Part shown: piece after piece, positions 9,888-53,170 of the stretch
How the letters are laid out: every line of letters starts with the position of its first letter
How positions within the stretch are numbered: position 1 is the stretch's first letter
Source of the DNA: Phoronis australis
Taxonomy: Eukaryota > Animalia > Phoronida
Length of the DNA: 64,000 nt
NCBI GenBank assembly: GCA_002633005.1
Contig: NMRA01000706.1
Span: 28,197-92,196, forward strand
Direction of reading: 5' to 3'
Translations under genes and position numbers: made by a program
The notes under the pieces: generated by a model
The model's input: only the letters and a program-made list of their open reading frames with translations
What the model was told of the DNA's origin: nothing
Database searches by the model: none

Positions 9888-10056
9888 CTTGGCATTTCTT
9901 AATCGACATGGCTTCGCTGCGACCGTAATAATTATTATTGTTGTTATCCGATAGTCCAAATTTGTCAGCCGTTACGAAACTTTCGGGAATGGCACCCTCT
10001 TTAACAGCTTGGTTGAGAAGAATTTTAGCCATTTCTGTCTCGCTCTCGTATGCAAC
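9888..10056 (-). CDS. Exon E16 (last exon that can be placed)
   Basis: ctaattttccag|VAYESETEMAKILLNQAVKEG...SIKKCQ|gtattc. The phase-0 acceptor matches the E15 donor. An alternative phase-0 donor lies at 9850. Confidence 0.7.
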
Positions 10057-13000
10057 CTGGAAAATTAGTTGAGTCTATTGTTTTGTTAACAACGGCGGCG
10101 ACAATGATGGTTTTGGTTATGACGGGAATCGTGATGGTTGTGATGGTGGTAATGGCGGCAGTTGAAGTCCTGGCAGTGGTGGTGTTAATGGTAGTGGTCA
10201 CGACGGCGGTGGTGTTGGTGAGGGTCATGATAAACAAACCTTAAAGTGGCTTTAATCCCGCCTTCAACCACAAAAACTTCGATTTAGACTTTTGAATATC
10301 AATGTCACAAAATTTCCGGCCACGCGGTGACCTTGAATGGCTTGAAATAAAATTCTGTGAGCTTGATCTTAAGAATTAAACAACTGTTGGTTTTAGCAGA
10401 GCCCTGAGACCACGCATAGCGGTAAGTGACCTTAATCAAAACTTAGCTGTTGACAGAAAACACGAGTTCATTTAATCTTTAAGTAGGGCTGCTGTTTGGC
10501 TTTGCACGCAGATTGGTTTGAAAGATAGGCGAATTAAGGTTGAGTCGTATTGAAGCACCCTACGAAACGTTTCAATTCCGTGTTTGCAAGCGCAACGATG
10601 AACAAAACCAGTTGAAGAAAAGTACATTAGTCCAAACAAATGTGACGAAAAGTTAGGGGCTTCGGACGTCTATGCAATACCAGTCTGAGAAAGATACACG
10701 GAGATTTTTTTTTTGGATTTGGGACAGTTGAAGTTGGGAGCCTCAGTTCGGCAAAGTATTAATGTCCAACCTTTATTTCTTTATGGTTATGAAATGGAAA
10801 TTCGAGCGCCTATGGTTACAGCCGTTTAAAAGAAAAGCAATCTAATCAATGTAATTTTCTTGCGTAATCCTCCTCCTTTTCTAACAAAGAAAAGTTATGT
10901 CGTCGACTGAAAAACAGTAGGCTCGTGACATGCACACGCGCCATTTCCTGAACTTTTTGCGACATCTCTCGGGAGATGATGACAGCTTGGCAGCAGCAAA
11001 TTTCTCCTGAAATTCCGTTTGCTGTTATCAAAATTCTAAAAACTTATAATGAAGTGAAACCAGTTCCGATAATTTGTTGTGCCGTTTAGGCAACCACGAT
11101 GAAAGAACAACAGTTGATTGTCGAATCGGCGAAAAGAGGAACTGGCCAATAGATGACGCAATATTTCATGGCTCTGAAAGCCGAGGCATAGGATCGCTCC
11201 ACAACTTTAGCTGCAGATTAACGGTAGAACGCCAATTTTTTCCAACACCGGTAAATAATTTAGTGTACTCAAGCAAGGGTATGATTCTTAATGACACTAA
11301 TTTTGTGTCAGATTTTATTTGCATGCGTGCACCCAGGAGGCATGACGGCGACATCCCGTTGCTCCCAACTTGTTCGATTGTATAGCCCAACAACAAGTTG
11401 GGAAGTCTACCCCCTGTATCCAATTAACTCCATTCTAGCGTTGATGGTTAGAGGGCCTGCGCTCTTTTGTTTGATAATTGCTCTAATCTCCCATCAGATC
11501 GTATATAGCGTGACTGGGGTGGGCTGATAAAAATTTAAGTTAAGTTAAGCCAGATATTTTCGCACGTTCAGCACCCCTAGCTTCTGGAAAAGTTACTGAA
11601 CGACAGGTCTCTGTAATGGGGGCTCGGGGGGGCCAACGCACCCCCCCCCCATTTGGCGAAGTGGGCAAAAAGGTCCGCCTCAGAGAAACAAAAAGTTCGA
11701 GAAAACGTGACAAAGGTGCAGACGCACAGTTCTGAAGGTGGTACCCCGTTTTTTTGTAGTCCTCCCAATATTTTGTCAGCTAAAGGTCTGCAGCGACAGA
11801 AATTCGAGCCCCCCATTTGCAAAGCTGGGTGCGCGCATAATTTGTTCAGTTTTTTATAAACATCGGTGCAAAGCTGTCTATTTAGTATACTACTTTGTAC
11901 CAAGGCTAACATTTAGCGCGCCATACATGTATCCTGCAGTACCTTGGCGAGAAGTAACACGAATTTATCCACTTATATCCAGTAAAGTAACTTTACAATC
12001 ACTAGGTAAGTGAATAAGCCCGTGACCAGTGAGCAGACTGACATTTTGGAAGCATTAAATGCATTGATAAAAATACTGTGTCAATAAAAAATCGATATCG
12101 GGTGGGATCGCCGATTTTTAACTTTGGACTTGCAGGCCTGTGCTCTTATACTGAATTGAAACCAAATTTCCCTTTCCTTGTTAAAAATGAACACACCAGC
12201 GAGTTTAATTTTAACAGTAAACTTAAAAAGTCTCTTTTGTTCGACGTACCTGGAGCAGAGAACATTGAACTAGACCAGAAACTTCTCTTCGCAGTTTGTT
12301 GTGCACGTCCCTCACCTTACTGCCGCTACTTGTCAAGCGATGAATAAAGTCCATAGAAATCTTTGACAAGACATGTCGACACACCTTTTGAACTAATTGG
12401 AAAGCTTGGCGGCTTAGCAGCTGGTGGTTAGCATGCACAGCTTCTTCACACACGTGAGGTGTATCGCACGCGATTTGCTTGTCGTCAGGAATACATATGT
12501 TGCAGAACTGGCAAGTTCCAGAGTGAATTGTGCTTTTGGTTTTTGCTACTTCAGGTACTACTGAGTGCAGCAGTTGGTCAACTATGCTTTGGCACAATGT
12601 TACAACTAGTTCATATGCCTGCGCAAAGTGGTCATCAGCTTGAACAGTATCAAATTTTGTGTCCTGGTTCAAACCTGATGACGGGATCCCATATCCGTGG
12701 TGTGTGATGGGATCGTGCAGTATTTCAGACTTTGGCTCATCGGTGTAAGGTACAGGCATGTCTGATCTACTAGGCTGGCCGCCAGCTGTTGTTGGTTCAA
12801 CTGTTCCCTTCTGCAGCGGTCTACTAGATTCAGTTGCACGATCTAAAACTGATTCACTGAATGACACCTTTTTAGCTAGTTTGGATCGTTCAGAACTAGA
12901 CGAGGTTGTTCCTCTGTTGTAAGAAGTCCCGATAATTGACGACTTTAGGACGCCTTTGCTTGGGAACAAGTCATGTCTGCTCTCAGAGACGTCGTCGCTC

Positions 13001-16000
13001 CACAAAACAGGCCCGTCGTCTCCCCAGGCCGTTTCGTTTTCTGTATCGTGCACGGTTGACCGCTCAACAATAAAAATGCCTGGTTCCTCTGTACATTTAT
13101 CTATCTCTGGCGAACATTGTGTCATTGTTGTAAGTCCTGCCTTTATTTCGCTTATATGCTGTTCGCTATTTTTAGTCACGTTGTTTAGCTTATCATGCTC
13201 TATTGGATCTACGATGCAGTTGATACCTAACTCTGACACACTTTCCAAAACATTTGACGGTTCCAAATCAAATTCTTTGATTATGCCATCGCCACATGTG
13301 TCTTTACTAGTGTCACAGGGAGAAATCGGACCTTCTAGGTGATGCACAGGAAACAAATCTTTGCTTTGTGCTTGAAGTATAGGTTTGAAATAGTTTTGCT
13401 TTTGACTGGAAATTCTGTTCTTCGATGGTGTCTTTCCTCCAGCGCCGTCTTCTGATTCGCTGAACCACCAGTACTCGTCTGATTTTTCGAGTAGTGACTT
13501 TGACAGGGGTTCAACGGAGGTCTGGTGAGAATAAACCTCAGGCAATGTCTCACGCTCATTTGTTCTAAACACTTTGAACGAGTCGTGGACGATCTCGTAA
13601 GTTCTATTACTCGTGAACGTTGATTCGCTGTCCTCTGTGTGGCGTTTCAACTGCGCTGCTGAAGGCACGTCACTGGTTAAGGAGGTGTCGTCCGAAATAT
13701 CCGTAGTCGAAGGTTCATTGGCTACTTCTGTATTGCTTCGCAATTCGCCCAACGATGTGTCTTGTGGATGACACGTTGGCCTTTGGCTAATTATGGACAC
13801 TGCCGTCGTGCTAGAATGTTCAGAAAATTCTGAAGCACGCTTAGAAGAAGGTGACGCGGAGTTGTTATCCATGTGTCCAGTTGGCATTTTAAGCGTAGTT
13901 TGAAAGGTTTCCATGTTGAAATAAGTCTTGGCGTTGTCGAGATATAATCCACTGAACAGTGGGGAGGTTGTTCCGGAGACGGTTTCCGAAGAACACAATG
14001 CCGTATCTTTTACCATTTGACATAAGCCTGTTGTTTGCTCTCCATTTAAGCTAATATCGGCCTGGTCTTTGTACATAGGCATACCTTGACGTGAGTTTCG
14101 TTGTCCTAATGAATGTTTGTTTGTACTGACTATTTTTCTTTGATTAAATTGAGGAGCAAGCGAATTAACGTTTTTTCTTTGCCCTTCGCGGTTTTCTAGT
14201 TCGCTGAAATCCGAGCTAAACTGGCCCTGAGTAATAGCGTCAGATGATGATAAACCGGAAGAAACATTGATAGGGTTATTATTTATTCGACAGCCATTAG
14301 CTAAAAAATCGGAACAACCGCACAATTTGAAATTTCCATTTCCCATTTCGCATGTTCTGCATCCACAAGAATTGTTACTTCTGGTAAATAATGCTGATTG
14401 GGCTGCTGGACAAATAAAAAGTGGCACGTCTGATTGCCTAGTTGACTCGGTCGATGAATAAAGTCGGCAACATTTTGAGTCACTGTTTTCAACTGTTAAT
14501 TTTGGAGGGTGACAGCAATTGCAAAGAGTAACAATTTTCTTGCTGGAAGGCAAATTACTGCTTTGACGAACAATCTTTCGATTCAAAAACCTGTCAAAAG
14601 TAGGTGACGACGAGGCACTACGGATAGGTAAGAAGAAATTTTCTCTGTTCCGCACTGTTCCGGGCTGACTGTGGGATCGTCGCGAGCTGCTTGACTTGTG
14701 ACTGTACGCACTGACAGATTGCTTTACTTTTCGCTTAACTCTTTGCCATAGTCTTGGGTTATCAAACCTGTTACCGCACGAGGTGTACCTGAGTAGCTCA
14801 AGTGTTCCGTTCGTGCTGATGGGCTCTCTCTTTGACGACCAGGGATCGTAGCGATTCTTCATTACAGGCTTGATTTTGCTGGGACTAATGTTCGACTCTT
14901 TTGACAATCTGGTGCGACTTCGTTGACTTGAACACTTCTGGATGTCACTTAAAATTTCATCACTTATCTTTAAAGACAATTGCCATTTTTCGTCAGTGCA
15001 AAGATCCTGCATGCATTCAGTGCAAACATATGACCCTTTTTCTTTAAGTGCTTTCGCCGGTTTATCGCTTTTTACCACGTGGTTAAAGCACTGCAGTGCA
15101 TTTGTTGCGACAGGTTTATTACTGTCAATAATATGATAGCGTTTAAGCCCGTTGGCGACAAGAGAAACTAGGTGTCGTTCTTGTACCGATGCATTGTAAC
15201 CACTTTCAACTCTGTTAGCAATATGTATCCGAGCCATCGATTGTCTTTTGATCGATTCGTCTCTTTCTGAGATAGGGTCTTTGCTAAGACAAAGGCGACC
15301 TTCATTTGACTTATCTTTAGTGTCACACTTACCTTTAGCTTCACATGACCATGCCGATTCTTTAGTTGTTTCTGAATTATCAGTTTCCAAATTGCATTCC
15401 NATTTATCTTTAAAGACAATTGCCATTTTTCGTCAGTGCAAAGATCCTGCATGCATTCAGTGCAAACATAAGACCCTTTTTCTTTAAGTGCTTTCGCCGG
15501 TTTATCGCTTTTTACCACGTGGTTAAAGCACTGCAGTGCATTTGTTGCGACAGGTTTATTACTGTCAATAATATGATAGCGTTTAAGCCCGTTGGCGACA
15601 AGAGAAACTAGGTGTCGTTCTTGTACCGATGCATTGTAACCACTTTCAACTCTGTTAGCAATATGTATCCGAGCCATCGATTGTCTTTTGATCGATTCGT
15701 CTCTTTCTGAGATAGGGTCTTTGCTAAGACAAAGGCGACCTTCATTTGACTTATCTTTAGTGTCACACTTACCTTTAGCTTCACATGACCATGCCGATTC
15801 TTTAGTTGTTTCTGAATTATCAGTTTCCAAATTGCATTCCTCCGGACGCCTGGTATCGAAAGTAATTCGCTGTGTTCCAGCATTAAAATCGCTGCTACTA
15901 GACCACTTGGGAGACTGTAAATTTCTAATGCTTCCACGAAAATCACCAGAGTCTTCAGCCCTTTTGGCCAAAGGCTTCACTTTATTTATCAAATCGTCTA

Positions 16001-19000
16001 CTTCGGTGACACTGACATGGTCGTCTCTTTTTCGAGAAGGCACTGGCGGCTTTCGTCTCATCCAACTTCCGCTTTTGCTACCTTTCACTATGTTATCGTG
16101 GCTTTCTGACTGCGTTTGGCGCCTCACGTTTCCCGGATGCGGGGTTGTTCTGTCTTTGCTAAGTCCTTGTCTGCTACCATAAAACGTTTCCGAGTGGTTT
16201 GCCTCAACTGGCGGCACTGCATCGTTTTCCCCATCGTTCTGTTGCTTGCTGAAGTCGCTCTGATTTTTAATATCATCACTCATGTCCTCAACGAGCTCTG
16301 TTCTGTTAATTACTTCATGTTCGCCCGATTCCTTTTTCTTATAAATTTTCTTTTCAGGTGTAGGACTTGCTAAGACTTGAAGGAGATTTTTCAGAACTAT
16401 ATCGTCAATGCTTGTATCGAGACTGTGGATATCTTCATTTTTGCTTGAATTCTTTCTTGCCGAAGATGAATTATTTTTGCTATATTGGCTCCCCGCTGAG
16501 TGGGAATGTTCTTTGTGTCTTTGCCTTCTGTTGTTCCTTGGTCCATTGTACGTTGATTTTGATTTTTTACTCTTATTCTCACTTTTCCTACGTGAAGGTT
16601 TACGTCGTGTTTTAACCGAACTCGGTGATGCAAAGGTATGTACCGGAAGTGGCTTGGAGTCAGGTGGTATCCAATTTGGATACATTTGAGCTTCATATTG
16701 TGGGACTTGTCCACGTGTTGAAGCAGCCACATGGTGATTATTTTCGGGCGTGTAAATATTTTGAAGGTTGTTCGTCGTTTGCAATCTTTTTGCTAAGCCT
16801 TTTTGATTTTGCCCTTCCTTGGATATATTCAAGTGCATGTTTTTCTTGGTACGAAATGAGTTTGTGGGTACAACTCCACCATCGGATTCAATAACACACT
16901 TGACAAATACAGTGTCAGACTCACTCCCGTCGTCAGCTGCAAGACGAAAAAAGTCAATATCGCGTACTGATGGTTGATCTTCTACAGACGTTTTCAGAGA
17001 ATGCCCAACAGCTCGAGTGGTCTCATTTCGCAGACCACATGTCTTTCTTGAGGATTTGTCTCGGCTGTAATGACGCATTTGTAGACGCTTCTTGTCCGAA
17101 CGTTCTCGTTTCCTGTTCTTTTCTAAACTTGTTTTTTGTCGTCTTTTGTATCTACTTTTTCGCTTAGTACCTAGTTTCAGGTGTTCATCTGAACAACGCT
17201 CTGACGTTTTCGTCCGTCCTCTGTCGTTGCTTTGATTGCGATTTTTTGCAGGCTTTGAGGTTGTTAAGAAGTTGCCATACATTCTATGTGGACTAAATCG
17301 GTCTGCCTGGTGGAATCTGTTTGGTTGTCGAACCGAGTTGTTTCTGTTTTTATGCAACGGAAATGGCGAATTAAAATACGGCAACGGATTAAGTGGCTGG
17401 TCTTTCAAATAGTTTTCAAACTGCTGCAACATCATTTCTTTCCTTAATCTGCTTCCTTCCTGCTGACCCGGTGACAACGTCCATTCGCCAACCCAGTTTT
17501 CAAAGTCGCAATCGTTACTACGTACTGGTCTCGATTCTTCTGGAATTACTTGTAGCCGTCGGGGCTCGTACAACCGTTCTGAATTTCGCTGGCTATATGT
17601 TTCGCGTTCGCCATTGTGCACCATTGACCTCCCCAATAATGGCGATTCTATGAATGGTTCATCCATTGACCAATTGTATTCATCTTTTGACGGTGAGCAA
17701 CCACGCAGTGATGGTGGCGGGTTTCTAGGAGCTGGGCTGGAAGACAGTAGCTGAAACTGTTGTGGAAAAGATGGTGGAAGTGGTGGTGGTGGTGCTCGTG
17801 GTGNGGTATCTGTTGTGGCGGCTGATGCATTGGTTGAATGGTTTGTGGAATATGAGGCATGTGCATTAACGAAGCCTGACGGGGATCAACGTCGTACGGT
17901 GAATGGAATGGCGGTGTATTCAACCCAAACGGCGGTAGACATGTTGACGCCGGAGGTAGCTGCTTTGGTGCAGGACTGCCCTGAATCACGATTGTTGGCT
18001 GACCAGACTTAAATTCTATGCTTGCAGGGTTTTCATTATTGTTTGTTTTATTGCCTGCGTTTTGCAGCTTGTTTGACTTGTTATTCAATTCTATCATATC
18101 TCCGATAGCGTCAAAGATATGATCGATATGTCGCTTTCTAGGCCTGTAATACCGTCTGTATTCACTGCTACTAGACGTGCTCCATCTCCTTCTACGAGAT
18201 CTACTAGTCTTCCTGGATCTTTCGCTTTCTCGTGTTTTACTGTTATTCCTGTTCTTGCGACCACCTCTCGTGGGCATCAATTCGTCGATAGCTTCAAGCA
18301 CCGACTCCTTTGTTTTCTCAACTAAATCGTCGTCATAAAATTTGGTGGTTGGGAGATCTTCGATGTCCAATCCAAGAGTATTCATTGGGGGTCCATTGAA
18401 AAACGCCATCGGTTGAGGAGGCTGAAGCCCCTGGTTTTGTGGAAATGGGGCTGTATTGAAAGGTATTGGTGGGCCGGGTGGAAAAGGTGGTCGTGGCAAC
18501 ATTATTTGCATCGGTGGAAATGGTGGTCTTAGTGGTACTGGGCCGAGGGATGGCCCGGGTGATTCGTTTGCATCAAGATTCTTTCGTGTTGGACTGCTGG
18601 GTAACATAGTGGAGCCATTAAGACTCTTATGAGAATGTTCGCTTATGATTGGACGACTTCCTCGTGAATCACCGTGTCGTGGGTTATGATGGTGATGGTG
18701 GTGATGATGATGTCTATTTCTCTTACCACTTCCCCTGCGATGCCTTGATTTTCTTCTCTTCTTTGTCTGTGGGTGCCTACTCATCGTACTTCCTTTTTGT
18801 GAAGCGGACAGCGATGAAGTTGATGCGTCATTGTGATTGTTTGCGGATCTATTGCGGTTGTGATTAGTAGACACGTTCCTTGGAGAAACAGTAGGCCATC
18901 GGTTCCAGTCGGAAAACCCTAAAAAATATGACAAAAAGGAATATTAAGTATACATTAAACATAGCAAATTATTCTTCAATTGATTTTTCAAAGTAGCCGC

Positions 19001-40000: not shown

Positions 40001-43000
40001 ATATCTCGGCTAGATGCTCGGAAAATGGATTTTGAATCACATTCGGAAAGCTTGTCCACACAGGAAACACATATGGCTTTTTTATAATTCCTTTCAGTTT
40101 TACCTTGGGGTTCCAAGGGTATTGTTTCTTTGTTTTACCTCTTGATGACCTAGGCACACGTTTCTCTTCCGTTGATGGGTTTACAAACATGTCAAATCCC
40201 AAGTGTGCAGTTTTCACCATATTTAGCCGTCTTCCATTGTCGTCATAGTCCAAAGACTTCCAAATCTTGTTGAATTCTCTTTCATCGCGTTGTAGGTTGG
40301 CGCAATAATTTGGACATTGCCAGTTAGGTATAGAATATGGTACATTCTGGTTGAACCAGTTAGGTATTGCAACTTGAGGATTGGGATTGAAACAAGAAGC
40401 TGTTGATGCCGAAACGTTATGAGGGTTGTTTGAATTGAATGAAGTTTCACCAATTTCTGAACAGTACGTGTTGACTGGTCTGCCTTCATTAATATATATG
40501 GTTCTTTGGTACGGTGATGTTGCCTTTCTTTCGTTCCTGTCAAGCTTCAGTGACACCTTCTTTTGTCTATAGGCCGATGAAGCACGTTTTACTCGTTGCA
40601 CCAAATATCTCCTTCTAATAAAATCATTATGCGAACTTAATGCTCTTGACAGATAATCAGCTTTTGATGGCTTCTTTCTAGTGCCTCTGCCAAGCTCCCT
40701 ACGGTCAAAAGTGATAGGGTGATCGGGTATGAACGCTTTCCTTTTTGTTGAAATTTCTTTTGTTTGATTCTTCCTATGTGCTTTCTTAGGGGATTGCATT
40801 TGCACCTTCTTTGGCAAAGGTGGCACCATCCTAGGGTGCTTTGTTAACCATACTGAAGTATTTGAAGATTCGACTGGCAATGAATTGTTGTAGTTTTCTA
40901 AATAACATTTACTCTGTAACTCGGGAATGGCTGCCAAGGAGGAAGCAGCTTGAACAGAGTCCATTTTTTTACTCTTGTCTTTATTGCTAGCTTTATTTTG
41001 CGGCTTCCTTATAAACTTTTTGCGGCGTTGACGTTTTTGAGAAGATGTTATATTCGCTGACTCGTTCTTTCGTTTTAGTGGTTTCGTCGGTGCGGACTTC
41101 TTGACAGGTGAAAAAATGCCAGTTGGAAAATCTGAGCAAAAATCAACAATACCATTGATAAATGGAAGCGATCTCGTCGTCCTTCTCGTATCCCGTTCTT
41201 GTTTCAACACTTTTCTACGAGGGGTTCCTACTTTGTTATTCATCGACTTAAATACACTGTCCAAATGATTGTCTGGGCAGTGTTCAGTTATCAAATTCTT
41301 TTTGGGAACTGTTTTCCTCTTGAAATGGGGCCTGTTCAAACTGTGTTTATAACTAATACGTGTTCTTTTTTCTCGGTTTTCTCCTTTTTGGGAGCTATAC
41401 AGGACAGTGCCAGTGGATGTAGTGGATGTCATTGAGGTTTCCGACAACATGTTATCAGAAAAAACAGCCACAACTTGTGAGGAACTGTCGTTTGCGATTG
41501 TTTTGTAACTTGACATATTCTCCTCTGAGTTGGCGCTGCCTTCCTCTGAACTTTCAGAACTACTTAGAGACCAATCACTAGAAAATTTGTCTGCACTGCT
41601 ATCTGGGGGTTGCGTAGCAATGAACCCCTTTTGTCGACCTTGAAAATCAGAGCTTGAACTTTGTCTTTTAGTAGACGGCGAGCCACTTGGGTTATTATTG
41701 CTCCTACTTCGTTGTCTTGTGCAACGCGCATGTCTGGGAGTCGGTGAAGCACTAACACTTCGCCTTCGCTCCGGACACTCCGGTACTCCAGGAAGGAATT
41801 GCCTATCACTTGGTAATGTGAGCAGAGACATGTCGCTGACGTGGTTCAAATCTTTTTCTGTTCCAATTCCAACAGAGACAAACTTCCGTGAACCACTGTG
41901 TGTCGCCACTTCCATCTGTTCTCTGTTCTCTTTGTCCGATTTCCCGTTAGCCTCGTCCTCTTCCATTATGACGTAGCACTTATTATTGTTCACAGTTTCA
42001 CTAGGTACAGACTCTTGCCCTTCTACTGAGGGTTTCTGAATTTCAAGGGCCACGCGTGAAATTTCCGACACGCCTTCACTGGTTACGGAGTCGTCCGACT
42101 GGTTTGATTTGGAGTCTGGTGATTGTTTCCATCTCGGGTCACTTCGGATTATATGCTCAGCATACGAGAACATGTCCATTTGCTTTTGCAATTCTAAACT
42201 TTCCGATTCTCTTGGAATTAATTTGCCGAATACGTCTCTTACGCTATGAAACCAATGACTGTTTGATTTTACTTCCTCTGGGTTGACCTTAGATACAGCC
42301 GAATTACTCTCCGTTCGACAGCTGACGTTTTCGTTTTCAAAGAAAAAATGTTCATCTTCGGGAATTACGTGCTGCTCTAAACGTAAAATAGCTCTTACCA
42401 AACGTCGAGAACATCCGTGGTTTTCTAGGGTTGCTTTTGCGACGCCTTTAAAGAAATTCGGTGGTATTTTTTTATTCGAAATTAAGTCGTAATAAGCTTT
42501 GGTGAAGTTCAATGCATCCTGAATTAATCGTCTTGATGAATATTTGTTTTGTTTAATGATCCGCTTTCGCCAGAGTCCATGTTTTGCAACCCAGTGTCTG
42601 TTGTGGTGAACACAAGCAAAATGGGGCATTCGTACTTTTTGGCCTTGCAACGTTAAAGCCCGACGATTATCTTTAGTTTCCCTTGTTATGTTATCCGGGT
42701 CATACAAGATTTCCCCTGTGCTTCTGTTACTGACTACTTTAACATCAGGATTTAAAGTGGACGAGCGAGGTTGGAGGTTGTGGACCATCTTTTGAACGTC
42801 CGGAATTCCCAGACTACTGACAGTGTCCCGATAAGTGGAAGCCTCCACTTTCATTATTTTCGGAATGTCTGCCCTCCTGTGGATGCGCCCAACCATAGTA
42901 AAATCGTTGTGAGTGAAATCCGGCTGCTCGTTTCGAACGATTGGTTCACCTTTCAATGTCTCCACGGTTTTTCTCCAAAAACGATCATAAATTGAGATTT

Positions 43001-46000
43001 TCTTCCTTCGGTAAATACCCATGTCGGAATTTGACGCGCTCTTGAATACTTCCACAAGCTCCCAGTCGTTTTTTAGCTTGTCAATATCGACATTGGACTG
43101 TCTCTCCTTCTTCCAGACCTCTCGCTTTATTTCCATGAGTTGTGGATCGTCTTCTATGCCCCCGTTTTCGTCTATACGTACTCGACTGTGTCGGCGTAAC
43201 TTATTTTTTATAGCTGAAACTGCCGATGATACAATTTTGGAAGGAATGAACATGCTTCTGTCTGGGTATATGATAACGCTGTCATCAGAGTCTCCATGGG
43301 AACTGGCTGAAATGAACGAATTTGTTTGATTTATGTTGCACTGAAATTACGTGCGTCAACGAAATTTTGTTATCAATAGCAGATAGCAAAGTGCACAACT
43401 AAAAAAGACATAGGTACATGTATTTAATTGCAGTAATAACAAAACAAGATCGGGACTGGTGTAACATTCATAAGTGGGTGTAGCGGAAGCAGGGTTGAAT
43501 AAATTTCAGTGTAATCGAATATTAAGATTTTCATACATGTTCCACGAACACTCGTCATAGCTTTTGCGATTTCTTTACAAATGCATTTGTCTTTCAATTC
43601 CTCTTTTACGGCGCTCGTTCCCTCTTCAATCTGGAAGAAATAGCCCAGACATCTCAAAAGATAAAGGAAGTATTTCATTATATGCTGAAAGCGGACACGA
43701 ACAGCCAAAACAAATTCACGCTTTGTATTCATAAAATACACTTGCGGTATCCAGTGGAAGCCCATTTAAAAAATCAATTAGTGACTGTTTTATTTCGACA
43801 TATGCTCGACTAAACTGGGCAATAGTACTGTCACGTGCTGTAATTCGTACCAAGTTTGGCGGTGTCTGGTTAAATTCTTTCTAAGTATGCAATGTAATTG
43901 TACAAGTTGTTAAGTTATGCATCACTCTGTAAAGCTTAGTGGGGCCAGTCCTTATCAAGATGTGACGTTTCGCCATCTTAACCATCAAATATGAGTCAGG
44001 AGATATTGTACAGGTTATTACTTGGAGTGGTAAATCGTACATTCACTGGCACCCGTGGCATAAGTAGAATCTACCTCTCGTGACGTGTAAAGGTACGCGC
44101 CCTATCAGTGATGAATTTGCAGTGTCAGACATTACTCATTTTTAAATCAGTGCATTTTTGTGATTTGAAAGGACTCCAGTTTCGCTAATTGATGCGGCTG
44201 TATTCTTGGTTTTCTTTTTCGAAAAGACTGTTTAGAGTTAAAGGCAGCAGGGCTACATTTTACTAGGGAGTTAGTTTGCCACGGAGAAAATACCGATCCG
44301 CCACCTTACGAAAGATGACTTTTACATGACTTCCAATGGGGATGAATAAAAACACTGCGAGAACATCGTATACTAATGTTTGTAAAAGATTTTTGTTTGA
44401 AAACTGGGCGGACATGAAAAGACTAACGCATTTCTTTTACAAATATCTTAGTCGAAACACGAATGTTCTAGTGTGCTCGAAAATGGCGACCATGTGACGA
44501 GAATGATGACTCGGATGGAATGAGCTCCGATACCTACCAATATGGGCGTAGGTTTCCTTCCTACCGCTTTATCAAAAGCTGTGGTAACTAGTTCTGCGAG
44601 AGTTTTTTCCGGTCCTTTCTTAGTCCTCCAAGTTTTCGTCTGCGTCTCCTGGTCAAACATGTCCGCCCAGAATGGTGGCTCCTCCTCACGCGCTGGCACA
44701 TCTAATGATGCCAGGGCGGTTGCGTCCACTTCGACGTCTTTGAATTCCCTTTTTTCGGGTGAATCCTCGGAATCAGCAATTGCCTATGCAAATGTATCAA
44801 GGACTATTGCGAATTAGACATTTCCAAGTTGCCCCTAAGAGTTGTAAGACTTAACAAATGTTGGAAATGACTTTCAAAACACTACAATCGACCCAGTTCG
44901 TGTGATTTTTTGTTTGACATTAATGGAGGAACGATTATCGAAAAATGCCCTAAGCCCACTGATTGAACGAGCGACGTGAAAGATTCATTTTTTTAAATCT
45001 ACACGGTGTCCGAAAGTAGTTAAAAACGTAGATAGGGTTCAAGTATTAACAGAAAAGCCTTGCCAAAACCAATAAAATGGCATGCTGAGAGATGACATTG
45101 AAACAGTCTTCGTAATAGTCACCCCCGAAATCAACTGATTTTATGACAGACATTTTTTGAGGTTGGTTGAATCAAATCCGTGATTACGTCCAGAAGCAGC
45201 ACGTGCAGTAATGTTGATGATTAAGTGGACATCAAAACACAGAAAACTATACTAACGCACTCAATATCAAATTTAAAACCGCCATACAGTAGTAGTTCTA
45301 GACTTAAACTGTAGCACTCGTGTTGCGAACTTGTTTATTCTTAAGTTTTTTAAGATTGCAATACTTCTGTTTAATGAGTACATCTCGGTACGCAGCAACA
45401 GTGTGGCATGTTGTCTGACTTGTAAACAAAAGCAAATGACGACCGAACTTGTTACAGCCGAGGTATAACAATGACTGACTCGACAGCTCTCACGGTCACA
45501 CTATATCAAAAGAAATTGACGCGAAATTCTTGCCTCCCAAAACGTCACCTGCGGAGTAAATGGTGAATACTTAATTAAATTACTAAAAGCTATACTTCAG
45601 TGAAAAAGATGTCTGGGATAATAAAAAAACCTTGTTTTTGCTAAAAATGACATGAAAAGTTTGCCTTGCCCTTCAACAGCGTTTGTGAGAGATATCGGCA
45701 AGTTTTCATTTAAATAAGGTTTCATTAAAATCGACCAAATTGTGTTTTAGTATTGTACCGTTGCTGAAAATGAAAACTTGACCTAAAGAGAGCGGCCACG
45801 TTATATTGACGATGGCACGTATGTATAAAGTGTATTTTTATAATCTATCATCTTTCTACACATACTGAGTTACAAAATATACTTTTATAGACATTATGTT
45901 GAATGCACACATTTTGTCGATATGGTCCTACATAATATTAAGCTTGGCTTAATAATAATTTTAAAATTTAAGTTCACATTGCGCAGGTTGTTAAGTTCAC

Positions 46001-49000
46001 TTACATGTATTTGAATTCATGCTATTACCTGTGCTCTTTTACGAAGTCTCCTGTAATATTCTCCCATTATAATGGGGTGAAAGAAAATTTTAGTCAGCCT
46101 GCCAGGTACATAGTGCCGGATGGACAAGTGACGTACTATGCCCTCCCATACTAGTCCGATGCCGAAAGACAACACAGACAGTACGAGGAAGCTCGTCCAC
46201 AAGGCCTTCGATGAAAAAGCAAACTGTTCCCACACCTCGACGCGTTTATCTTCCATGTTGGAAATAATCTTACTCATCGACTGGGTAGAGCTGAGTAAAT
46301 AGGCGTTCAGGAATAACACATTAGCTACTATGCCCATCAGTAAAGTAGCAGCGGCAAACCGTGGAATACATGTAATTGTGTGGGTGCCGGAGAAGATGTT
46401 TAGCCAAAGGTGATACTCAAAGAAGCGCTCTATAAAACACCTTTGGAACAACCTGAAAATATTCGTTTTATCTTGATAGTTGGTCGAATATTGGCATTTC
46501 TGATACAGCGCAGAGTAGCGTGGATGCAACACCAAACAATAACCTAATTCATTACTTTAAGTGGACTGTTGGTCAAATTCTAACTTGGCAACACGTAGCC
46601 ATTGCCATTATCTTCACCAGCATCACCATCTGCCTCAGCGTCACTATTACCATCATATTCATCATCATATTATCATAACCACAACGTCTACAGATGCCAG
46701 TGGTGATTGTGATGGTGGTGGGGGCGGCGGCGGTAGTGGTAATGACGATGGAAATGTTGGTGACATTGGTGATGACAACCATCTTCGCAATCACAATAAT
46801 CACAATCAGCTTCGATATTAGCAGTGAAATGTTCGATCTTAAACACCTGCAGTATAATTTCCCTTAGGTCGTATTAGCCTCAATATTTTTGTCAGCCTCT
46901 TGCCTCATAAATGCTATTTTATTATCCTCATGAACATGTAGGTGGTGCACATCTTTGTGTTCCGTCGAGGTGCGAATCCACTTTTGAGCGGGGAAGTAGA
47001 AATTGGCCTTCGTCACCGGATCATACACAGTGATATCACAACAGTACCTACAAAAAGTAATAGACCGGGAAGACCAATAGTTGGGAATATCGTTTTATCG
47101 AGGAGTGCTGTGATTGCAGTGAACAACAAAACGTCGGTTAAAATACAGAAACGTTTTGAAATTGTATATACTGCAATTATTTTAGTCAGCGGCACCATTT
47201 GCTAGGATATCACTCTAGAGAGCACATCAGCAACCCATTTCTTTAAGTTTTTGGAGTGTATGTTTTAACTGGTCTGCGAGGAGAACAGCAGCCTCCACAG
47301 ACGGTTTGACCCAAAGAATGACAAAGTGAGAACTTAGGATTTACAGGTGAAACTTCTAGCTTCACGTTCAGTCCTTACTAAAAAACAGAATGTTTGTAAT
47401 GAAGGACTAACGTTATTTGCTGTAAACTACACTCGTCGCCTGCGCCGTGAAATTACAAAGAAAAGCGGATTTGAGGTTATTACTTTGCTCAAATGTCGAA
47501 GAAAATAACAAACTTCAGCACTAATGGGCATGGTGCAAGCACGCAGGCAGGATTATAAAAGTATTTCAAATTTCTTAAATGTACAAGCATTTATAAAAAA
47601 GTTAGTCCAAAAAGTGAAGACGCTTAAGCCGTGCTAAATACTTACCTTCCGTAAAAACTGATTTTTAAGTTAAACCACGTACCGTTACAAAACCGGAGTT
47701 GGGAATAGTTTACAATTCTTTCTAGGTTGAAACCAGGCTTGTTACATAAAATAACCAGTCTGACAAGCTAAATTGCTAAACTGGCTCTCAACTGATTGCC
47801 ATAATAAACTGTCATTTCTTTGCAATCCCGGAAATCGTTAATAATTTGAAGAGGGAGGAACTGGAGATTAGCTACATGTGTATATGACAGTATGGGAATG
47901 ATTAAACAATCGCTTGTGACAGATGCCTCTTTAAATGATAACAACTGTACAGAGAGCCGGAAAATGTGAGTTATTGTTACGTGTGTGTATATGGACAGGG
48001 GTGTACTGTGTGATAGTGCCTCTGAAAGTAGCTGAACTCTTGATGGTACTAACCAGTCAGAAAATCCCTTTGCGTCCCCGTAGTTTTTAACTTCAAGTTT
48101 CAGGATTTTTCCCAGGCTGACTGAAATATAACCGAATAATTATACGGAAAACAGAATAAACTAATACCTCATGTACGCCTCTTCAAACTGAAAAGCAATT
48201 ACGAGTGATAACACCACAGCAGTGTGCTGTTAAATGCACAGTTGGTAAAGCGGCGAAAAACCCGTGCTTTCTATCAAAAACAAGTTTTGGTAAATGCCAA
48301 AATGGGTGTGTTATTTCGTACTAAGTTTAGAAATGATCTTTGGGGCTTGTGAAGGAATAAAGAAATGTCTGAGGGAATCTGTTCTGGCTAAAGAACAATT
48401 TGAGACCATTCTCCTAAAGGTGTTTTTGGCAGAAAAGACGGTTAAATGTCGCTTTAAAACGATAACTTAACACGATGTCATCGGGTATATCAGAAATGGG
48501 ACTGTAAGAGTTAAACATTTTCAAAAAAAAAATTCAACAAATTTCCTCCTAAATGGGTTATGGTGTTCAGGGAGATTTTTTTCGAAATTAGTCATTCGGT
48601 GATTGAGTCGACACTAAATGGCGCATGATTTCACCAAGCCACCAGTGCTCACCAAGCTCCTTGACGTATTCATGTATATCGGAGGCAGGCAGATATACAA
48701 ATTCACAAATGACTTATTTCAGACCAAGTACGAAACATATCGACAAGGACATACAAAAAGCTGTAACACTGTTCTTAACGATACAGTATGCCGATCAGCT
48801 TAGGGTTCTGTGTCATGGTGCAGCCACAAATGTATTGCGTGTCGTTTTTTCACAAGCACACGTATATTGCGCATGTGTCGGCGTCTGATAGCACGGCATT
48901 GTATAAAACAAGTTCATTTAATTAGTTCATACCACTGGGAATAAAATGCCAATTGTGCGATTGCACGCCCGACTTGGATAAACTAAAGCAAAATTGAAGC

Positions 49001-52000
49001 TACTTTTCTCGACGTTTAATTTTCTCTTGGCAACGATCATTTGTCACTGGAGGGTATTGCCAGCGGGTGCCGTCCGTAATGTGAGGCTCTTGCGAGTTCT
49101 GCTAAATCACGCACTCAAGAGAAAGGATAGTTTTTCGCGAATGACCTTACGATTTTTCATTGTACTAATGCGAAAAGACATTCACTAATAACAGCTTATT
49201 TTTTAATTTTTATTAAAATGGCATAGGCAAGAAATTGAATGTCTAACCTTTGTATTAATATGGGGCTTTCCACTTGAAGGTGGGCAAAGAGCGATTCCTC
49301 CTTAATATGTAGAGGCCCCACCGGAAGGCAGCCAAGGAGCAAAGGGGAGATTCGCTCTCAGGCCGCCTTCCAGTGGGGCCTTTAAATTGATATAGGCGGC
49401 CCACCTTTTGAAGCCCGAAATTCAATTTCTTTTTCATGTCATTTTAATAAGAATAAATCATTTAAATAATAAGCTGTTTGAACACATTCGAGGGCGAGGA
49501 TTTACCTTTGAACTAAAAGAGAGATGTGTAAGTCAACACACTACATACATTTCGCTAGGCAACATTTCTTCCTTTCTACCTAATCCCCATGTCTCTATTT
49601 CTCTCCTCCTTGTCTTTCCCTCTTTCTATCTCTCTACCTCCTCCCTCCCCCCTNNNNNNNNNNNNNNNNNNNNNNNNNNNNNNNNNNNNNNNNNNNNNNN
49701 NNNNNNNNNNNNNNNNNNNNNNNNNNNNNNNNNNNNNNNNNNNNNNNNNNNNNNNNNNNNNNNNNNNNNNNNNNNNNNNNNNNNNNNNNNNNTCTCACGT
49801 AATCTCGCGAAGTCTTGCTTTTAGCGAGGTCCTAGCGTTACTGAACGGGAGGCAGTTATCTATCCCCATGCGAGGCAGAATGTCCACCAGAATTCCGTAC
49901 CTTCTGTGAAAACAATGAAGACGTCGCGGTTGCCTATCTGAAGCGGGGTTACATTGGGGCGAGATCGGTGCTCTGGATCAAGCGGCTCGTAGAACTCATG
50001 CAGACTATACCATCGTGACACCTGCTTTCCTTCGCCACACAAACGTATGCTAATTTCTGTTACAGTGGATGAGCCTGGTTCAAAGATCCATCTTTAGTCA
50101 GAAGAATTCAAGAGGCAGTTTTATCTGTTATGTAAATTTGTAGCATGCAGTTTGTTCATAAAATTTAAATGTGAAAAATTATTTGTCATTTGGATGTCTT
50201 AGCAATAAATGTCCTGGCTGACTCTCGGATCTAGGACTTTGTGAGTAGTGCACAACACCATTTTTCTAAAGAAGGATATCCGTCTCTAAAATGGTGTGTA
50301 GGGTGAGGGAAATTGCTGCGTTTCCCTATATCTGCCCATGTAACTCTCGTCAAAATTTGCAGTGAGGGAACGTTAAGACGTTAGTGGCCCTTATGCGGCA
50401 GTTGCCACCTTCAGGTCAAGCTTTACTCTAAGGTCACCGTCGCACTTACCTACGTTTTGTACACCGGCTTTGTTGCTATTTGGTAGTAAGTCCAGAGAGT
50501 AGTGCGGATTTTTAGAAAAAATCCCTTATTCAAAATTGCACAGCTCGCTTGCCAAAGAGGGCAATGAGTTTTAATAACTCTGTATTACTTTTCAATACGT
50601 AATTCATGCCAGCGTTTTTCAATATTATCCAGCAAATATCCTATTTGTTAGCAATTAGCAGGCAAGAACAGCGTCAAAGAACCAAATGGATGTAGTAGAC
50701 TGTCACTTTTGGTTTTGCAAAATTCCGATGATTACGTGGTACATGTAGCCAACGTTTGAGAATGAAAAGAGAGATACACTGTACTTGTGTTGTAAAAATA
50801 GGACATACACGTATGCATATAATGAAATAGGCATCAAAGGTCTGTTTTATTAAAAAAACATTTAAGATTGAAGACAAACTGGTCTTGCGTTTCACATGCA
50901 TGTATTACTTCTGAAAAATAATTAAATCTCATGTGAGCAACCGTTGTAAAGTCTCTGAGAATGTACACGCAAGTGCTTGTTAATAAGCAAATTACTGCAA
51001 ATTATTTCTAGAGTTTGTTGTGCTCATGATTACTTTGTTAAACCTTTACTCAACAAAATCTCTGACAATGTACTCACAACTAGGAATTTATTGAAATTAA
51101 TAGTTACCATAAATTGTTTCTTAGACTGTATGCAATCATAAGTACATGGCTGAAGCTTAAATATGAAGTGTGGGCGTAAGACCCACTTTCTGTTTTACTG
51201 TAAGTCTTAAATCACCAACAGAAACAGACCCCAGGGTCACTACATAAACACAAGTGTGGATTGTGCCCGGTGAACAATCGAAAACGCCCCAATGGTGTAA
51301 TAGGGATGAATTGGGTGGTGAATCCCAAACATGTACACTGTTATGTGTAGTAAGTCAAAATTCGAGACCTTTTGACGGTGTGGTGGGATGTGAAGCAAAC
51401 CTTTCAGCGGCTGCAATGTCCACCAAATGCGGGGCTCTGAAACTAATGCTAACCATTGAACCTGCAGCAACCGTGATCACAAACAAAAAAAAAACACTCA
51501 CCTGGCCAAGCCCCTGTGCGAACGATTAGAATGTATGGTACAACCTCACATTGGCCTTTCTTGAGTGGAATAATGCAGCTCTAGTTGAAAAGACAGAATT
51601 CAAAAAACCTGTACTTGAGGCTTCTTACGTTTTCCTATGGCCATTTAATGTTTTGTTGCCTAAGGTGTCTTGTTTAACGTACTCTTGCGTTCGCCGGATA
51701 AAAAAGCTTCTATGAATGTTAATGAAATAAATTTAATCAAAACGTATTCCCAAATGGCACTCTTTTAACTTAACGTTGGTTTTTATCGTAATAGACAGTA
51801 ATTAATAAAGAATTATAGGCTTAATTTCTGAATTGCTTTTGGTGCATCGAGGGATGGGGCTTCCGATTGGACAAACGCATTCTGTTATTCAAACTGATGA
51901 AAGTAACGGCATTTACGAGTCTCAACCATTCGGACAACATGTCATCAATTAGGTGTTGTTCGAAAATATTACGCAGGAATGGTAAAACCACTGAATTTAC

Positions 52001-52594
52001 TTTCACTAATGTCTTGTCACATAATTTGCTCAAAAGTTTAGAACACGTGACGCAGTAAAAGATTTGGTGGTTCACCTAGGGATAACATGGCATGTTTACA
52101 TTTGTATTCGGCAGTATTTAGTATTTTGCACAGCCTGCGGTATTTACCTTCTGATTAAAACAGAATTGCTCATCTCTACCCTATCTAGATGTTTGACACG
52201 TCTGGAGAAACGGGCACCCCCTTCAGATGCTGTGTTATCACAGTGCATGTTTTGCAGGTGTCTCAGAACTTCCCTGCGCACTATAGTATAGAGTGCTCTT
52301 GAATAGTCCTTCTAAGCTCACCTTTCGTTCGTTGCCATACTTCTGAGTCATGTAGAGCAGGACTGCAAATAACCCAAGAATCACTCCTGCAATCATGGGC
52401 GATAAGAAACGAATGAAGTCTTTTTGGGGGTTAGACGGCTTTGGAACAACGATGTCGTAAGGGGAGAATCTTTCGACTTCCGCTGAAGGGTCTTTATGGT
52501 CCGCTGGGGGACTAATGCTGTCACTGATGGTAATAATGGTGCTCAATATGACGGCAATACCCAGGTGGAAAAGGTATCCAGCCATTTTGAGCAT
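9888..52594 (-). CDS. Giant spliced polycystin-1-like protein (signal peptide-TM1-PLAT-TM2-TM3 plus ~5,400 aa disordered region), ~5,800 aa, 3' end unresolved
   Basis: 15 exons chained with matching intron phases: 52594-52322, 51580-51502, 50074-49901, 47721-47646, 47047-46904, 46452-46029, 44783-44538, 43630-43537, 43306-39587, 35585-34107, 30518-28902, 28671-26788, 26375-25482, 18918-12316 (after repairing N artefacts), 10056-9888. The sum is about 17,434 nt, with no in-frame stop once the two artefacts are repaired. PLAT and TM2 motifs were recognised by eye. Confidence 0.75.
10085..10230. repeat. Degenerate (GGT/GAT)n low-complexity tract in intron
   Basis: Visible trinucleotide periodicity. 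Confidence 0.8.
11345..11522 (+). repeat. Dispersed repeat with cccaacttgtt/aacaagttggg hairpin, copy 1
   Basis: Direct, diverged copy at ~20333-20520. Confidence 0.7.
11616..11838 (+). repeat. Dispersed MITE-like repeat, copy 1
   Basis: Shares G/C-tract ends, gcctcagagaaacaaaaa and gctgggtgcg(c/a)gcat with 53756-54001. Confidence 0.65.
12316..18918 (-). CDS. Exon E15: ~6.16-kb single exon, split into three ORFs by N artefacts at 17804 and 15401
   Basis: Acceptor tcctttttgtcatattttttag|GG (phase 1), donor AAG|gtgagg (phase 0). After N17804 a shifted frame reads PRAPPPPLPPSFPQQF...YNWS directly into MDEPFIESP. Collapsing the 440-nt offset duplication at N15401 fuses the 832-aa and 1067-aa ORFs in frame. 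Confidence 0.8.
14964..15840. other. Artefactual/allelic duplication (14964-15400 = 15404-15840) across N15401
   Basis: 437-bp copies identical by eye except one synonymous substitution (15031 t vs 15471 a). Confidence 0.9.
20333..20520 (+). repeat. Dispersed repeat with hairpin, copy 2
   Basis: Similar to 11345-11522. Confidence 0.7.
21654..22066. mobile_element. MITE with ~20-bp TIR C(A/T)GGGCC(C/T)GGTCTC(C/T)AATCT and TCGA-rich interior
   Basis: ctgggcccggtctccaatct ... agattagagaccaggccctg. The same terminus occurs at 173-192. Confidence 0.75.
21769..23043. other. Allelic duplication (21769-22394 vs 22423-23043) across N22422
   Basis: Near-identical copies with a 5-bp indel and three substitutions near the right end. 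Confidence 0.85.
22395..22421 (+). mobile_element. Terminus of a CATAGGCGGATTTAGGGGG element, truncated at the N joint
   Basis: Resembles the reverse complement of the 56870-56891 terminus; absent from the duplicate flank at 23043. Confidence 0.65.
25482..26375 (-). CDS. Exon E14: acidic-tract exon (module copy B2)
   Basis: tcgtattacag|(G)QGKPCVWLKCPKK...GGFF|gtaagt; 894 nt, phase 1-1. Confidence 0.85.
26788..28671 (-). CDS. Exon E13: basic exon ending in Pro/Cys-rich motif (module copy A2)
   Basis: actttttgcag|TA AAA GGA GCA GTG leads into the 627-aa ORF; donor AAAG|gtagca; 1,884 nt, phase 1-1. Confidence 0.8.
28902..30518 (-). CDS. Exon E12: acidic-tract exon (module copy B1)
   Basis: tgtttcgtttag|(G)QKWACRTCKEKDD... 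continues in frame into the 516-aa ORF; donor ATAT|gtacgt; 1,617 nt, phase 1-1. Confidence 0.8.
31733..32992. mobile_element. Kolobok-type non-autonomous element, same family as 6623, with TTAA TSD
   Basis: TTAA at 31729-31732 and 32993-32996. Inverted ends match for all 90 bp visible before the gap. The right arm carries the THAP start MPHCCCVP (ATG 32727, minus). Confidence 0.85.
31823..32702. other. Assembly gap
   Basis: N run inside the Kolobok element. Confidence 1.
34107..35585 (-). CDS. Exon E11: basic exon ending in Pro/Cys-rich motif (module copy A1)
   Basis: Within the 550-aa ORF. Acceptor aataatttag|GT, donor AACG|gtaagt; 1,479 nt, phase 1-1. Paralogous to 26788-28671. Confidence 0.85.
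36089..37767. mobile_element. Second Kolobok family element (internally deleted), nested in a CAGTGGCG-ended element
   Basis: Imperfect TIRs AGGAGCATGCGACCG / AGGAGAATGCCACTCG, flanked by TGAA (36085-36088) and TTAA (37768-37771). THAP N-terminus MLRCIVPACPN...GILFFRLPRE..MLRIWL on minus from 37606. Converging plus-strand remnant from ~37216 (DYQSEQEYSDEEILERR...RMDW), resembling a KolX start. Confidence 0.7.
37768..38245 (-). mobile_element. Second copy (terminal part) of the 55857 element
   Basis: Reverse-complement similarity to 55857-56405; ends ...gatatcctagatctgccactg. Confidence 0.8.
38789..39016 (-). CDS. Possible optional exon (228 nt, phase 1-1)
   Basis: Open frame AFSTSTQGHQK...MQKAMMNQINSKQ...AAKQF with donor TCG|gtgaac. 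The acceptor aatatag is weak. Not counted in the CDS length. Confidence 0.3.
39587..43306 (-). CDS. Exon E9: 3,720-nt basic/Ser-rich exon
   Basis: Contains the 1224-aa ORF. Acceptor ttcgttcatttcag|CC, donor CAAG|gtaagt; length divisible by 3, phase 1-1. Confidence 0.85.
43537..43630 (-). CDS. Exon E8 (small linker exon)
   Basis: tatttcttccag|IEEGTSAVKEELKDKCICKEIAKAMTSVRGT|gtatga; 94 nt, phase 0 to 1, the only open frame after this acceptor. An alternative phase-1 donor 4 nt further on in E7 could skip it. Confidence 0.55.
44538..44783 (-). CDS. Exon E7
   Basis: tttgcatag|AIADSEDSPEKREFKDVEV...KPTPIL|gtaggt; 246 nt, phase 0-0. Confidence 0.75.
45373..45672 (-). mobile_element. Single terminal arm of the same Kolobok family
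   Basis: Similar to 32703-32992 and to the reverse complement of 6623-6920, including gcagcaacagtgtggcat and a degenerate terminus. Confidence 0.8.
46029..46452 (-). CDS. Exon E6: polycystin-1-type TM2 and TM3
   Basis: attttcag|LFQRCFIERFFEYHLWLNIFS...RFAAATLLMGIVANVLFLNAY...FAFSSKALWTSFLVLSVLSFGIGLVWEGIVR...RKRAQ|gtaata. The F..LF......HLW..F motif after PLAT is characteristic of the PKD1 family. 424 nt, phase 2 to 0. Confidence 0.8.
46600..46810. repeat. Degenerate (CAT)n/(GAT,GGT)n low-complexity tract in the GC-AG intron
   Basis: Visible trinucleotide periodicity with a strand switch. Confidence 0.75.
46904..47047 (-). CDS. Exon E5: end of PLAT domain, with GC donor
   Basis: ttactttttgtag|YCCDITVYDPVTKANFYFPAQKWIRTS...NKIAFM(R)|gcaaga; 144 nt, phase 2-2. 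Matches the PLAT C-terminal pattern IxVxDxxT...YFPxxxW. Confidence 0.85.
47646..47721 (-). CDS. Exon E4: PLAT domain
   Basis: tttcaacctag|(E)RIVNYSQLRFCNGTWFNLKISFYG(R)|gtaagt; 76 nt, phase 1 to 2, bridging E3 and E5. Consensus donor. Confidence 0.75.
49654..49792. other. Assembly gap
   Basis: N run after a CT-rich tract. Confidence 1.
49901..50074 (-). CDS. Exon E3: PLAT domain
   Basis: aaccag|(G)SSTVTEISIRLCGEGKQVSRWYSLHE...PLQIGNRDVFIVFTE|gtacgg; 174 nt, phase 1-1. Fits the PLAT pattern GxxTxxxVxIxLxGxxGxS...FxxGxxDxF. Confidence 0.85.
51502..51580 (-). CDS. Exon E2: start of PLAT/LH2 domain
   Basis: ttctgtcttttcaactag|SCIIPLKKGQCEVVPYILIVRTGAWP(G)|gtgagt; 79 nt, phase 0 to 1. YILIVRTG matches the PLAT N-terminal Y-x-I-x-V-x-T-G strand. 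Not in the ORF track. Confidence 0.85.
52322..52594 (-). CDS. Exon E1: signal peptide, short stalk and TM1
   Basis: MLKMAGYLFHLGIAVILSTIITISDS (signal-like) ... DFIRFLSPMIAGVILGLFAVLLYMTQKYGNERK. Acceptor ttttcccgtaacag 2 nt upstream of the ATG (exon starts 52596); donor AAG|gtgagc, phase 0. Confidence 0.8.
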
Positions 52595-52672
52595 TTCTGT
52601 TACGGGAAAACATAAGTCTTATTACCTTTCGAACTAAAAGTGTTAAAATATGACGTTTGTCAGTTCATCGTA

Positions 52673-52852
52673 ACAGTAGTTGTGATGGTAGTGGGGGTGG
52701 TGGTGGTGGTTGTTGTTGTAGCTGTCTATCAGTTGTGGCAGCAGTAGCGGTAGTGGTAGTGGTAGTAGCAGTTGGTAGTGGTCATGATGGTGGTGGATGA
52801 TTTTTGTTGTTGTCTAATAGTTGTTGTGGCAGCAACAGTAGTAGTAGTAATG

Positions 52853-52895
<43 letters not shown>

Positions 52896-53170
52896 CAGTA
52901 GTAGTGGTGGTGGTGGTGGTGGTGATTGGTTGTTGTTGTTGTCTACTAGTTGTTGTAGCAGCAGTTGTAGCATCAGTAGTAGTAGCAGTAGTAGTAGTAG
53001 TAGTAGTAGTAGTACATGTAGTAGTTAGTAGTGATGGTGGTGGTGGTATTAGTGGTAGTAGTAGTCGTAGTAGTGGTATTAGTTATTAGTACTTAGTATA
53101 AGTGGTAATTGTTGTTGTTGTTGTTGTTATTGTTGTCTACTAGTTGTTGTAGCAGCAGCACCAACAACAC
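52673..53170. repeat. Compound trinucleotide microsatellite (GTA/GTG/GTT/GCA)n
   Basis: Long (gta)n runs, with a recurring ttgttgttgtctactagttgttgtagcagcag-like higher-order unit. Confidence 0.95.

Follow-up and report, generated by a model that had tools for sequence, protein, structure and literature searches.

Polycystin-1 (PC1) proteins are thought to sense by means of a very large outer domain and a site of self-cleavage. Can a member of this family exist with almost nothing outside the membrane and thousands of residues inside? The question is raised by a 64,000-nucleotide stretch of the phoronid Phoronis australis (GenBank assembly GCA_002633005.1, contig NMRA01000706.1, positions 28,197 to 92,196 of the forward strand), which we call the window and whose own numbering is used throughout. 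The DNA of the window is rich in introns and of animal type, at ~40% GC, and contains three N gaps and five single Ns. Its minus strand carries a series of large open reading frames (ORFs; 43346-39582, 35661-34006, 30531-28897, 28744-26780, 26436-25459 and 18943-12226) that are longer than chance allows, a run of 1,240 open codons having a probability of ~1e-29 at the intronic stop rate. A first-pass annotation of the sequence had joined these orphan frames into a single gene, with a polycystin-1 membrane and PLAT module fused to a giant cytoplasmic region. Our best reading of this gene is that the loop between transmembrane helices (TM) 3 and 4 has grown about tenfold in a PKD1-like protein that has no GPS cleavage site.

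Exon chain and expression of the gene

Scripted joining of 15 minus-strand exons between 52594 and 9888 gives 5,831 codons without a stop. The exons (E1 to E15), each with the evidence for it, are:

52322..52594, minus strand: E1, coding part; predicted signal peptide, ectodomain and TM1 (hydropathy, E1-E2 RNA joint)
51502..51580, minus strand: E2, start of PLAT (RNA joints on either side, profile match)
49901..50074, minus strand: E3, PLAT (RNA joints, profile match)
48054..48120, minus strand: E4, PLAT (RNA joints, profile match)
46904..47047, minus strand: E5, end of PLAT, with a putative GC donor (E4-E5 joint; Pfam PF01477 at E 0.071, below cut-off)
46029..46452, minus strand: E6, H-L-W motif, TM2 and TM3 (hydropathy, motif order by eye, depth 44/42)
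44538..44783, minus strand: E7, where the giant cytoplasmic region begins (E7-E8 joint, depth 43/50)
43537..43630, minus strand: E8, 94 nucleotides, phase 0 to 1 (RNA joints on either side)
39587..43306, minus strand: E9, 3,720 nucleotides, 1,240 residues (ORF, RNA joints; no Pfam family)
34107..35585, minus strand: E10, 493 residues, basic, with a Pro/Cys-rich module at its end (RNA joint; module common to E12)
28902..30518, minus strand: E11, 539 residues, an acidic block and then basic (ORF, phase 1-1 splice sites)
26788..28671, minus strand: E12, 628 residues, paralogous to E10 over ~150 residues (sequence match, splice sites)
25482..26375, minus strand: E13, 298 residues (3' end read as a loose end joined to 18918)
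12250..18918, minus strand: E14, a single exon of ~6.2 kb and ~2,080 residues with assembly breaks (continuous stranded depth)
9888..10056, minus strand: E15, last exon found in the window, phase-1 donor (E14-E15 joint, loose end at 9887)

The splice sites are AG acceptors and GT donors with the single exception of the GC donor after E5, and E9 to E13 are symmetrical phase-1 exons. As the first-pass annotation had claimed, the splice phases chain without conflict once two repairs are made at single Ns: the frame shift at N 17804 was bridged by an X, and a 440-bp repeat around N 15401 was reduced to one copy. This repeat occupies 14964-15840 as two 99%-identical copies, over which RNA depth drops from ~70-95 to 37-54, the reads there fitting two places. 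The halving argues that the transcript has one copy and that the duplication is an assembly fault. Single Ns at 1874, 15401, 17804, 22422 and 58389 mark contig joins; sequence is duplicated across the N at 15401 and, by eye, also near 1874, and ORF breaks at such Ns are suspect. Six of the seven short peptides cited in the first-pass annotation lie where it placed them, while the seventh, FMRLF, spans the GC-donor junction between E5 and E6. The length of ~5,800 residues given in that annotation is a minimum, as the frame has no stop at 9888 and reads splice onward from there.

RNA reads were drawn from three raw-read runs (X1, X2, X3) and one contig set (X4) under the same species label and were mapped to 34000-53900 and 1-19990 of the window. 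Junction figures are X1/X2 reads, and for 34000-53900 they come from the 15 of 93 joint rows listed. We find RNA support for nine of the 14 junctions, eight as joints (E1-E2, 60/30; E2-E3, 39/21; E3-E4, 41/39; E4-E5, 36/35; E7-E8, 30/33; E8-E9, 27/23; E9-E10, 64/42; E14-E15, 122/105) and one, E13-E14, as a loose end whose sequence is that in which E13 ends (51 reads, X1). The joints E8-E9 and E14-E15 had been named beforehand as RNA checks. E5-E6 and E6-E7 are absent among the rows listed. Depth per exonic base is 45/42, 44/42 and 43/50 in E5, E6 and E7. This level depth across E6-E7, together with fitting phases, makes it likely that E1-E6 and E7 onward are joined in one gene, and the single spliced gene of the first-pass annotation stands on this depth, the chained phases and the nine junctions.

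Expression of the gene is strongly sample-restricted, being seen in two of three raw-read libraries. X1 and X2 cover every exon in the mapped parts with the strandedness of an RNA made from the minus strand, and their depth per exonic base from E1 to E10 is 36-82 (X1) and 33-62 (X2). X3 has no cover on any exon of the gene in the mapped parts, though repeats are covered as in the other runs, and the X4 contigs fall on repeats only.

Front module and predicted giant cytoplasmic region

The front of the spliced model has the elements of a PKD1-type protein in their usual order. By hydropathy there are four hydrophobic segments: a signal-like one at residues 5-23 and three further ones at 63-81, 278-296 and 334-352. 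In E1 this gives a predicted signal peptide (5-23), an ectodomain of ~36-40 residues and TM1 (63-81); TM2 (278-296) and TM3 (334-352) both lie in E6. Using a PLAT profile built from all 25 PF01477 matches in bacterial genomes, we obtained a single match in the spliced model, at residues 111-219 (E 3e-5, 22.5 bits), compared with 8.2 bits for the best of 2,000 shuffles of the segment and 4.4 bits for the best of 2,041 unspliced six-frame ORFs. The first-pass annotation had staked its case on such a match within E2-E6. By eye and unscored, the succession of TM1, basic juxtamembrane residues, PLAT strands, H-L-W motif, TM2 and TM3 is that of the rows compared in a 121-sequence trimmed PKD1 alignment (PMC6294549, supplement 5). 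A PLAT/LH2 domain directly after TM1, and an H-L/I-W motif after PLAT followed by TM2 and TM3 (by eye and hydropathy), are marks of the PKD1-like family, and planarian and human members also have PLAT after TM1 (PMC11291080). The evidence thus supports a PKD1-type TM1-PLAT-TM2-TM3 module, predicted from sequence, in the six small exons that the first-pass annotation had placed ahead of the large ORFs.

Other marks of the family were not found. Ahead of TM1 there is no GPS/GAIN region in E1, whose 62 preceding residues include no Cys, have no Pfam hit and do not show the Cys/Trp GPS pattern on inspection. Nor does E1 carry a large ectodomain with REJ, PKD repeats or lectin, a probable upstream exon lying outside the view. 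GAIN, REJ, PKD and lectin families match 0 of 66 upstream ORFs of at least 42 residues, a search that shorter exons would escape. An H-L dipeptide at residues 10-11 was considered as a GPS cut site and rejected, as it lacks the Cys/Trp frame. The family is further marked by eleven TM with a C-terminal polycystin cation-channel domain, and by a C-terminal coiled coil and pairing with a PKD2 subunit; the model shows three TM, and its C-terminus lies beyond the window. The tiny ectodomain of the first-pass annotation is therefore borne out as a prediction (~40 residues, no GPS), and the gene product appears to be a PKD1-derived protein with some of the marks of the family.

From residue 353, after TM3, the model continues to at least 5,831; these 5,479 or more residues are mostly of disorder type, and hydropathy finds no hydrophobic segment after residue 352. 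Ser, Lys, Arg and Pro abound in this region, which also has acidic blocks. Negative FoldIndex values occur in 79% of windows beyond residue 400 compared with 3.5% before residue 390, in line with the largely disordered endodomain that had been proposed, and no Pfam family is above cut-off in any large exon. E10 and E12 share a module (34107-34640 and 26788-27300; 39% identity over 156 residues, E 2e-19) with a poly-proline stretch and a Cys-rich end, which indicates that part of the giant region arose by exon duplication. None of the 22 variants listed in E10 and E14 makes a stop, and the region looks, from its sequence, as if its frame is kept and its residues are loosely constrained. Single-sequence AlphaFold2 models of the end of E14 and the start of E9 (predicted local distance difference test 50 and 37) were too poor for a fold search; helices may be present at the end of E14. 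A Cys-rich cluster lies in E14 at approximately 14300-14530 (residues ~5018-5090 of the model), with C-x-x-C pairs elsewhere in the tail, and such clusters are possible small metal-binding knots.

Comparison with the family points to the loop after TM3 as the unusual part. PKD1-like proteins have 11 TM, a large ectodomain, GPS and PLAT in 1,700-4,300 residues (PMC5318412), compared with at least 5,831 here. In fish Pkd1l2a ~500 residues (1512 to 2019) separate the end of PLAT from the channel domain, whereas here more than 5,600 residues past PLAT do not reach TM4 (PMC5318412). Trimming of the PKD1 alignment has left no block from TM3 up to the point where TM4 starts (PMC6294549), suggesting that this loop is the variable site of the family. 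In both the order of TM1, PLAT, H-L-W, TM2 and TM3 and the variable loop after TM3, the protein agrees with PC1, PKD1L1-3, PKDREJ and sea-urchin SpREJ. The cleaved C-terminal fragment of PC1, which has a short stalk at its start and signals on its own, likewise has a few tens of residues ahead of TM1 (PMC9672506). However, its N-terminus comes from self-cleavage, while the one here is predicted from a signal peptide, and PC1 has no giant loop.

Searches for closer relatives returned none. E6 matched 0 of 265 candidate proteins of 248-2,000 residues, both at E 0.001 and at E 10, and E9 matched 0 of 3,568 of 2,170-5,000 residues, both weak evidence, as longer full-length relatives are outside these ranges. 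A phmmer search of E6 against 1.84 billion representatives gave two matches, rejected as tandem-repeat sequences unrelated to polycystins. Among viral contigs 0 of 5 stretches were confirmed. One of 183 metagenome stretches held an ORF sharing a single 8-mer, which we rejected as a relative and take to resemble a phage YqaJ-type nuclease. A PDB sequence search with E6, E5 and E3 found nothing relevant, and the ESM Atlas gave a best score of 0.78 for E6 and no usable match for residues 1-430 of E9. Searches of open-licence papers listed none that describes this architecture.

The two open ends of the gene model

At the 5' side, a probable splice acceptor lies 2 nucleotides before the ATG (AG at 52597, exon start 52596), and RNA depth stops sharply near 52596, the bin 52592-53255 having a depth of 0.47. 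Because the depth ends within a few bases of this AG, E1 probably has an upstream partner exon, beyond 53900. By eye in 56940-57600, minus-strand donor sites near 57509 and 56941, one of them after a CCAAT-like box, are first-exon candidates. A degenerate 3-bp repeat upstream of E1 (52837-53083, 82 copies) might mimic a Thr-rich ectodomain, but is cut off from E1 by in-frame stops. Further out, an ORF of 110 residues (60675-61004) has a weak Pfam match to Piezo TM25-28 (E 3e-4, 20.4 bits, cut-off 27) that is probably due to chance.

At the 3' side, 9888 is a phase-1 splice donor at which the frame has no stop. A loose end at 9887 is identical in 104 (X1) and 78 (X2) reads, and the frame goes on for ten codons within it. 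These 30 letters of the onward exon have no match in the readable sequence of the window or in metagenome contigs, and stranded depth specific to X1/X2 is absent from 1-9300. This places the next exon in the N gap 7709-8497 or beyond the window. A minor form extends past E15 (9450..9887, minus strand) to an in-frame stop at 9759, giving 5,873 residues; its stranded depth is 24/13 at 9498 and its molecules begin at 9450 in both X1 and X2. This is a possible alternative last exon.

The intron after E15 holds a 4.5-kb element (4996-9507) with 39-bp inverted repeats (4996-5034 and 9469-9507, 97%) and an inner 72-bp inverted pair (6861-6932 and 7637-7708). Five X2 reads skip 5018-9480. The read-through overlaps the terminal repeat of this element, and part of its depth may come from other copies. 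A THAP-like ORF at 7477-7707 within the element has an E of 1e-4, just under the cut-off, and a candidate next exon at 5894-5977 was rejected: it is inside this THAP element, has the wrong phase and no stranded depth, and is not the loose-end sequence. A second THAP-like ORF (37478-37843, E 3e-4) lies in the E9-E10 intron, where a repeat cluster (35900-38650) is covered on both strands in all runs.

A probable expanded loop and its rivals

Based on the front module and the onward splice, we lean, at somewhat better than even, toward a divergent polycystin-1-family protein with a predicted signal peptide, ~40 residues outside and no GPS, whose giant loop is an expanded TM3-TM4 loop; TM4 onward is probably encoded beyond the window. 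Several observations weigh against this. TM4-TM11 are not seen within the 5,831-codon model, and the protein, viral, metagenome and ESM Atlas searches found no homologue. Pfam PLAT stays below cut-off on single exons (14.3 compared with 23 bits; E5, E 0.071), the signal peptide is a call from hydropathy only, and the family motifs around TM2 are, by eye, worn relative to most rows compared in the PKD1 alignment. The upstream exon of E1 could be coding. FoldIndex is crude, with about a fifth of windows not of disorder type, and 8 of the 22 variants listed in E10 and E14 are synonymous, which is not different from neutral (p 0.18). Three junctions (E10-E11, E11-E12 and E12-E13) fall outside the RNA-mapped stretches, and the E6-E7 joint that ties module to tail is missing among the 15 of 93 rows listed. 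This last point is also what would favour two co-expressed neighbours, with E1-E6 as a small gene for a PLAT membrane protein and E7 onward as a giant gene for a disordered one. We regard that arrangement as very improbable: E6 runs without a stop into a phase-0 donor, E7 has a phase-0 acceptor and no Met at its start, depth is equal at the two exons (44/42 and 43/50), the intron between them has no depth apart from a repeat, and both halves are off together in X3.

The first-pass annotation had left it undecided whether the loop is expanded or replaces the channel. The latter would make the protein a channel-less derivative, in which three (or five) helices and PLAT form an anchor and the giant region is the C-terminal tail of a structural or scaffold protein. 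No TM4 appears within 5,479 residues, the minor read-through form stops at 9759, the worn motifs would fit, and depth climbs toward E15 to 160-170 per base, as near a 3' end. Channel-less PKD1 relatives are also in print, namely teleost Pkd1l3 remnants (PMC5318412) and SpREJ proteins with 1-6 TM (PMC1934368; SpREJ1, 2, 7, 8, 9), which keep the front without the channel; they retain GPS and mostly the ectodomain, and the excerpts of these papers describe no giant inner region for them. However, in-frame onward splicing accounts for most reads at 9888 (104 compared with ~20 reading through, X1), and the rise in depth would also fit 2-3 kb of further exons. The front bundle of PC1 has five helices, of which three would be an incomplete part. 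We therefore find the channel-less derivative rather unlikely and the expanded loop likelier. An ordinary PKD1-like N-terminus, with a normal ectodomain encoded by upstream exons out of view and nothing unusual but the loop, draws on the RNA depth stopping at an AG 2 nucleotides before the ATG and hence on the probable upstream exon. It is improbable given that a Met directly precedes the signal-peptide-like run, that E1 has no Cys/Trp GPS pattern and that none of the 66 upstream ORFs of at least 42 residues matches an ectodomain family.

For the expanded-loop protein, three membrane passes after removal of the signal peptide would put both PLAT and the giant region inside, and the loop may have grown as giant, symmetrical phase-1 exons were gained and duplicated. 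PLAT of PC1 binds phosphatidylserine, phosphatidylinositol 4-phosphate (PI4P) and beta-arrestin and steers trafficking (PMC9672506). PLAT and the helices here could similarly direct the protein to a membrane domain, much as this binding does in PC1, and the basic Ser/Pro-rich region could serve as a spacer or scaffold anchored at the membrane, in a single cell type or state. Should the protein retain its channel half, it would be a PKD1-type subunit of a PKD1/PKD2 channel that is tethered or regulated from inside and not through ligand binding by an outer domain. A role in sperm, guessed at together with the cilium in the first-pass annotation, would fit precedent in the family (PMC1934368) and the on/off expression. 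More tentatively, and short of even, we suggest an "inside-out" polycystin: a full 11-helix PKD1-type channel subunit without adhesion ectodomain or GAIN, with a start like that of the cleaved PC1 fragment, whose 0.6-MDa disordered TM3-TM4 loop of duplicated giant exons would allow tethering, spacing or gating from the cytoplasmic side in a single specialised kind of cell, for example sperm.

A lesson for annotation is that gene finders and homology searches would split this gene into unrelated orphan ORFs. The value of the finding depends on the unseen 3' end and on whether relatives share the layout. A relative that occurs in nature, is well expressed and has more than 5,400 residues inside but almost nothing outside would show how far the polycystin design can be turned round, and would provide a test case for the role of PLAT and the front helices without an ectodomain and for the length that the TM3-TM4 loop can tolerate.

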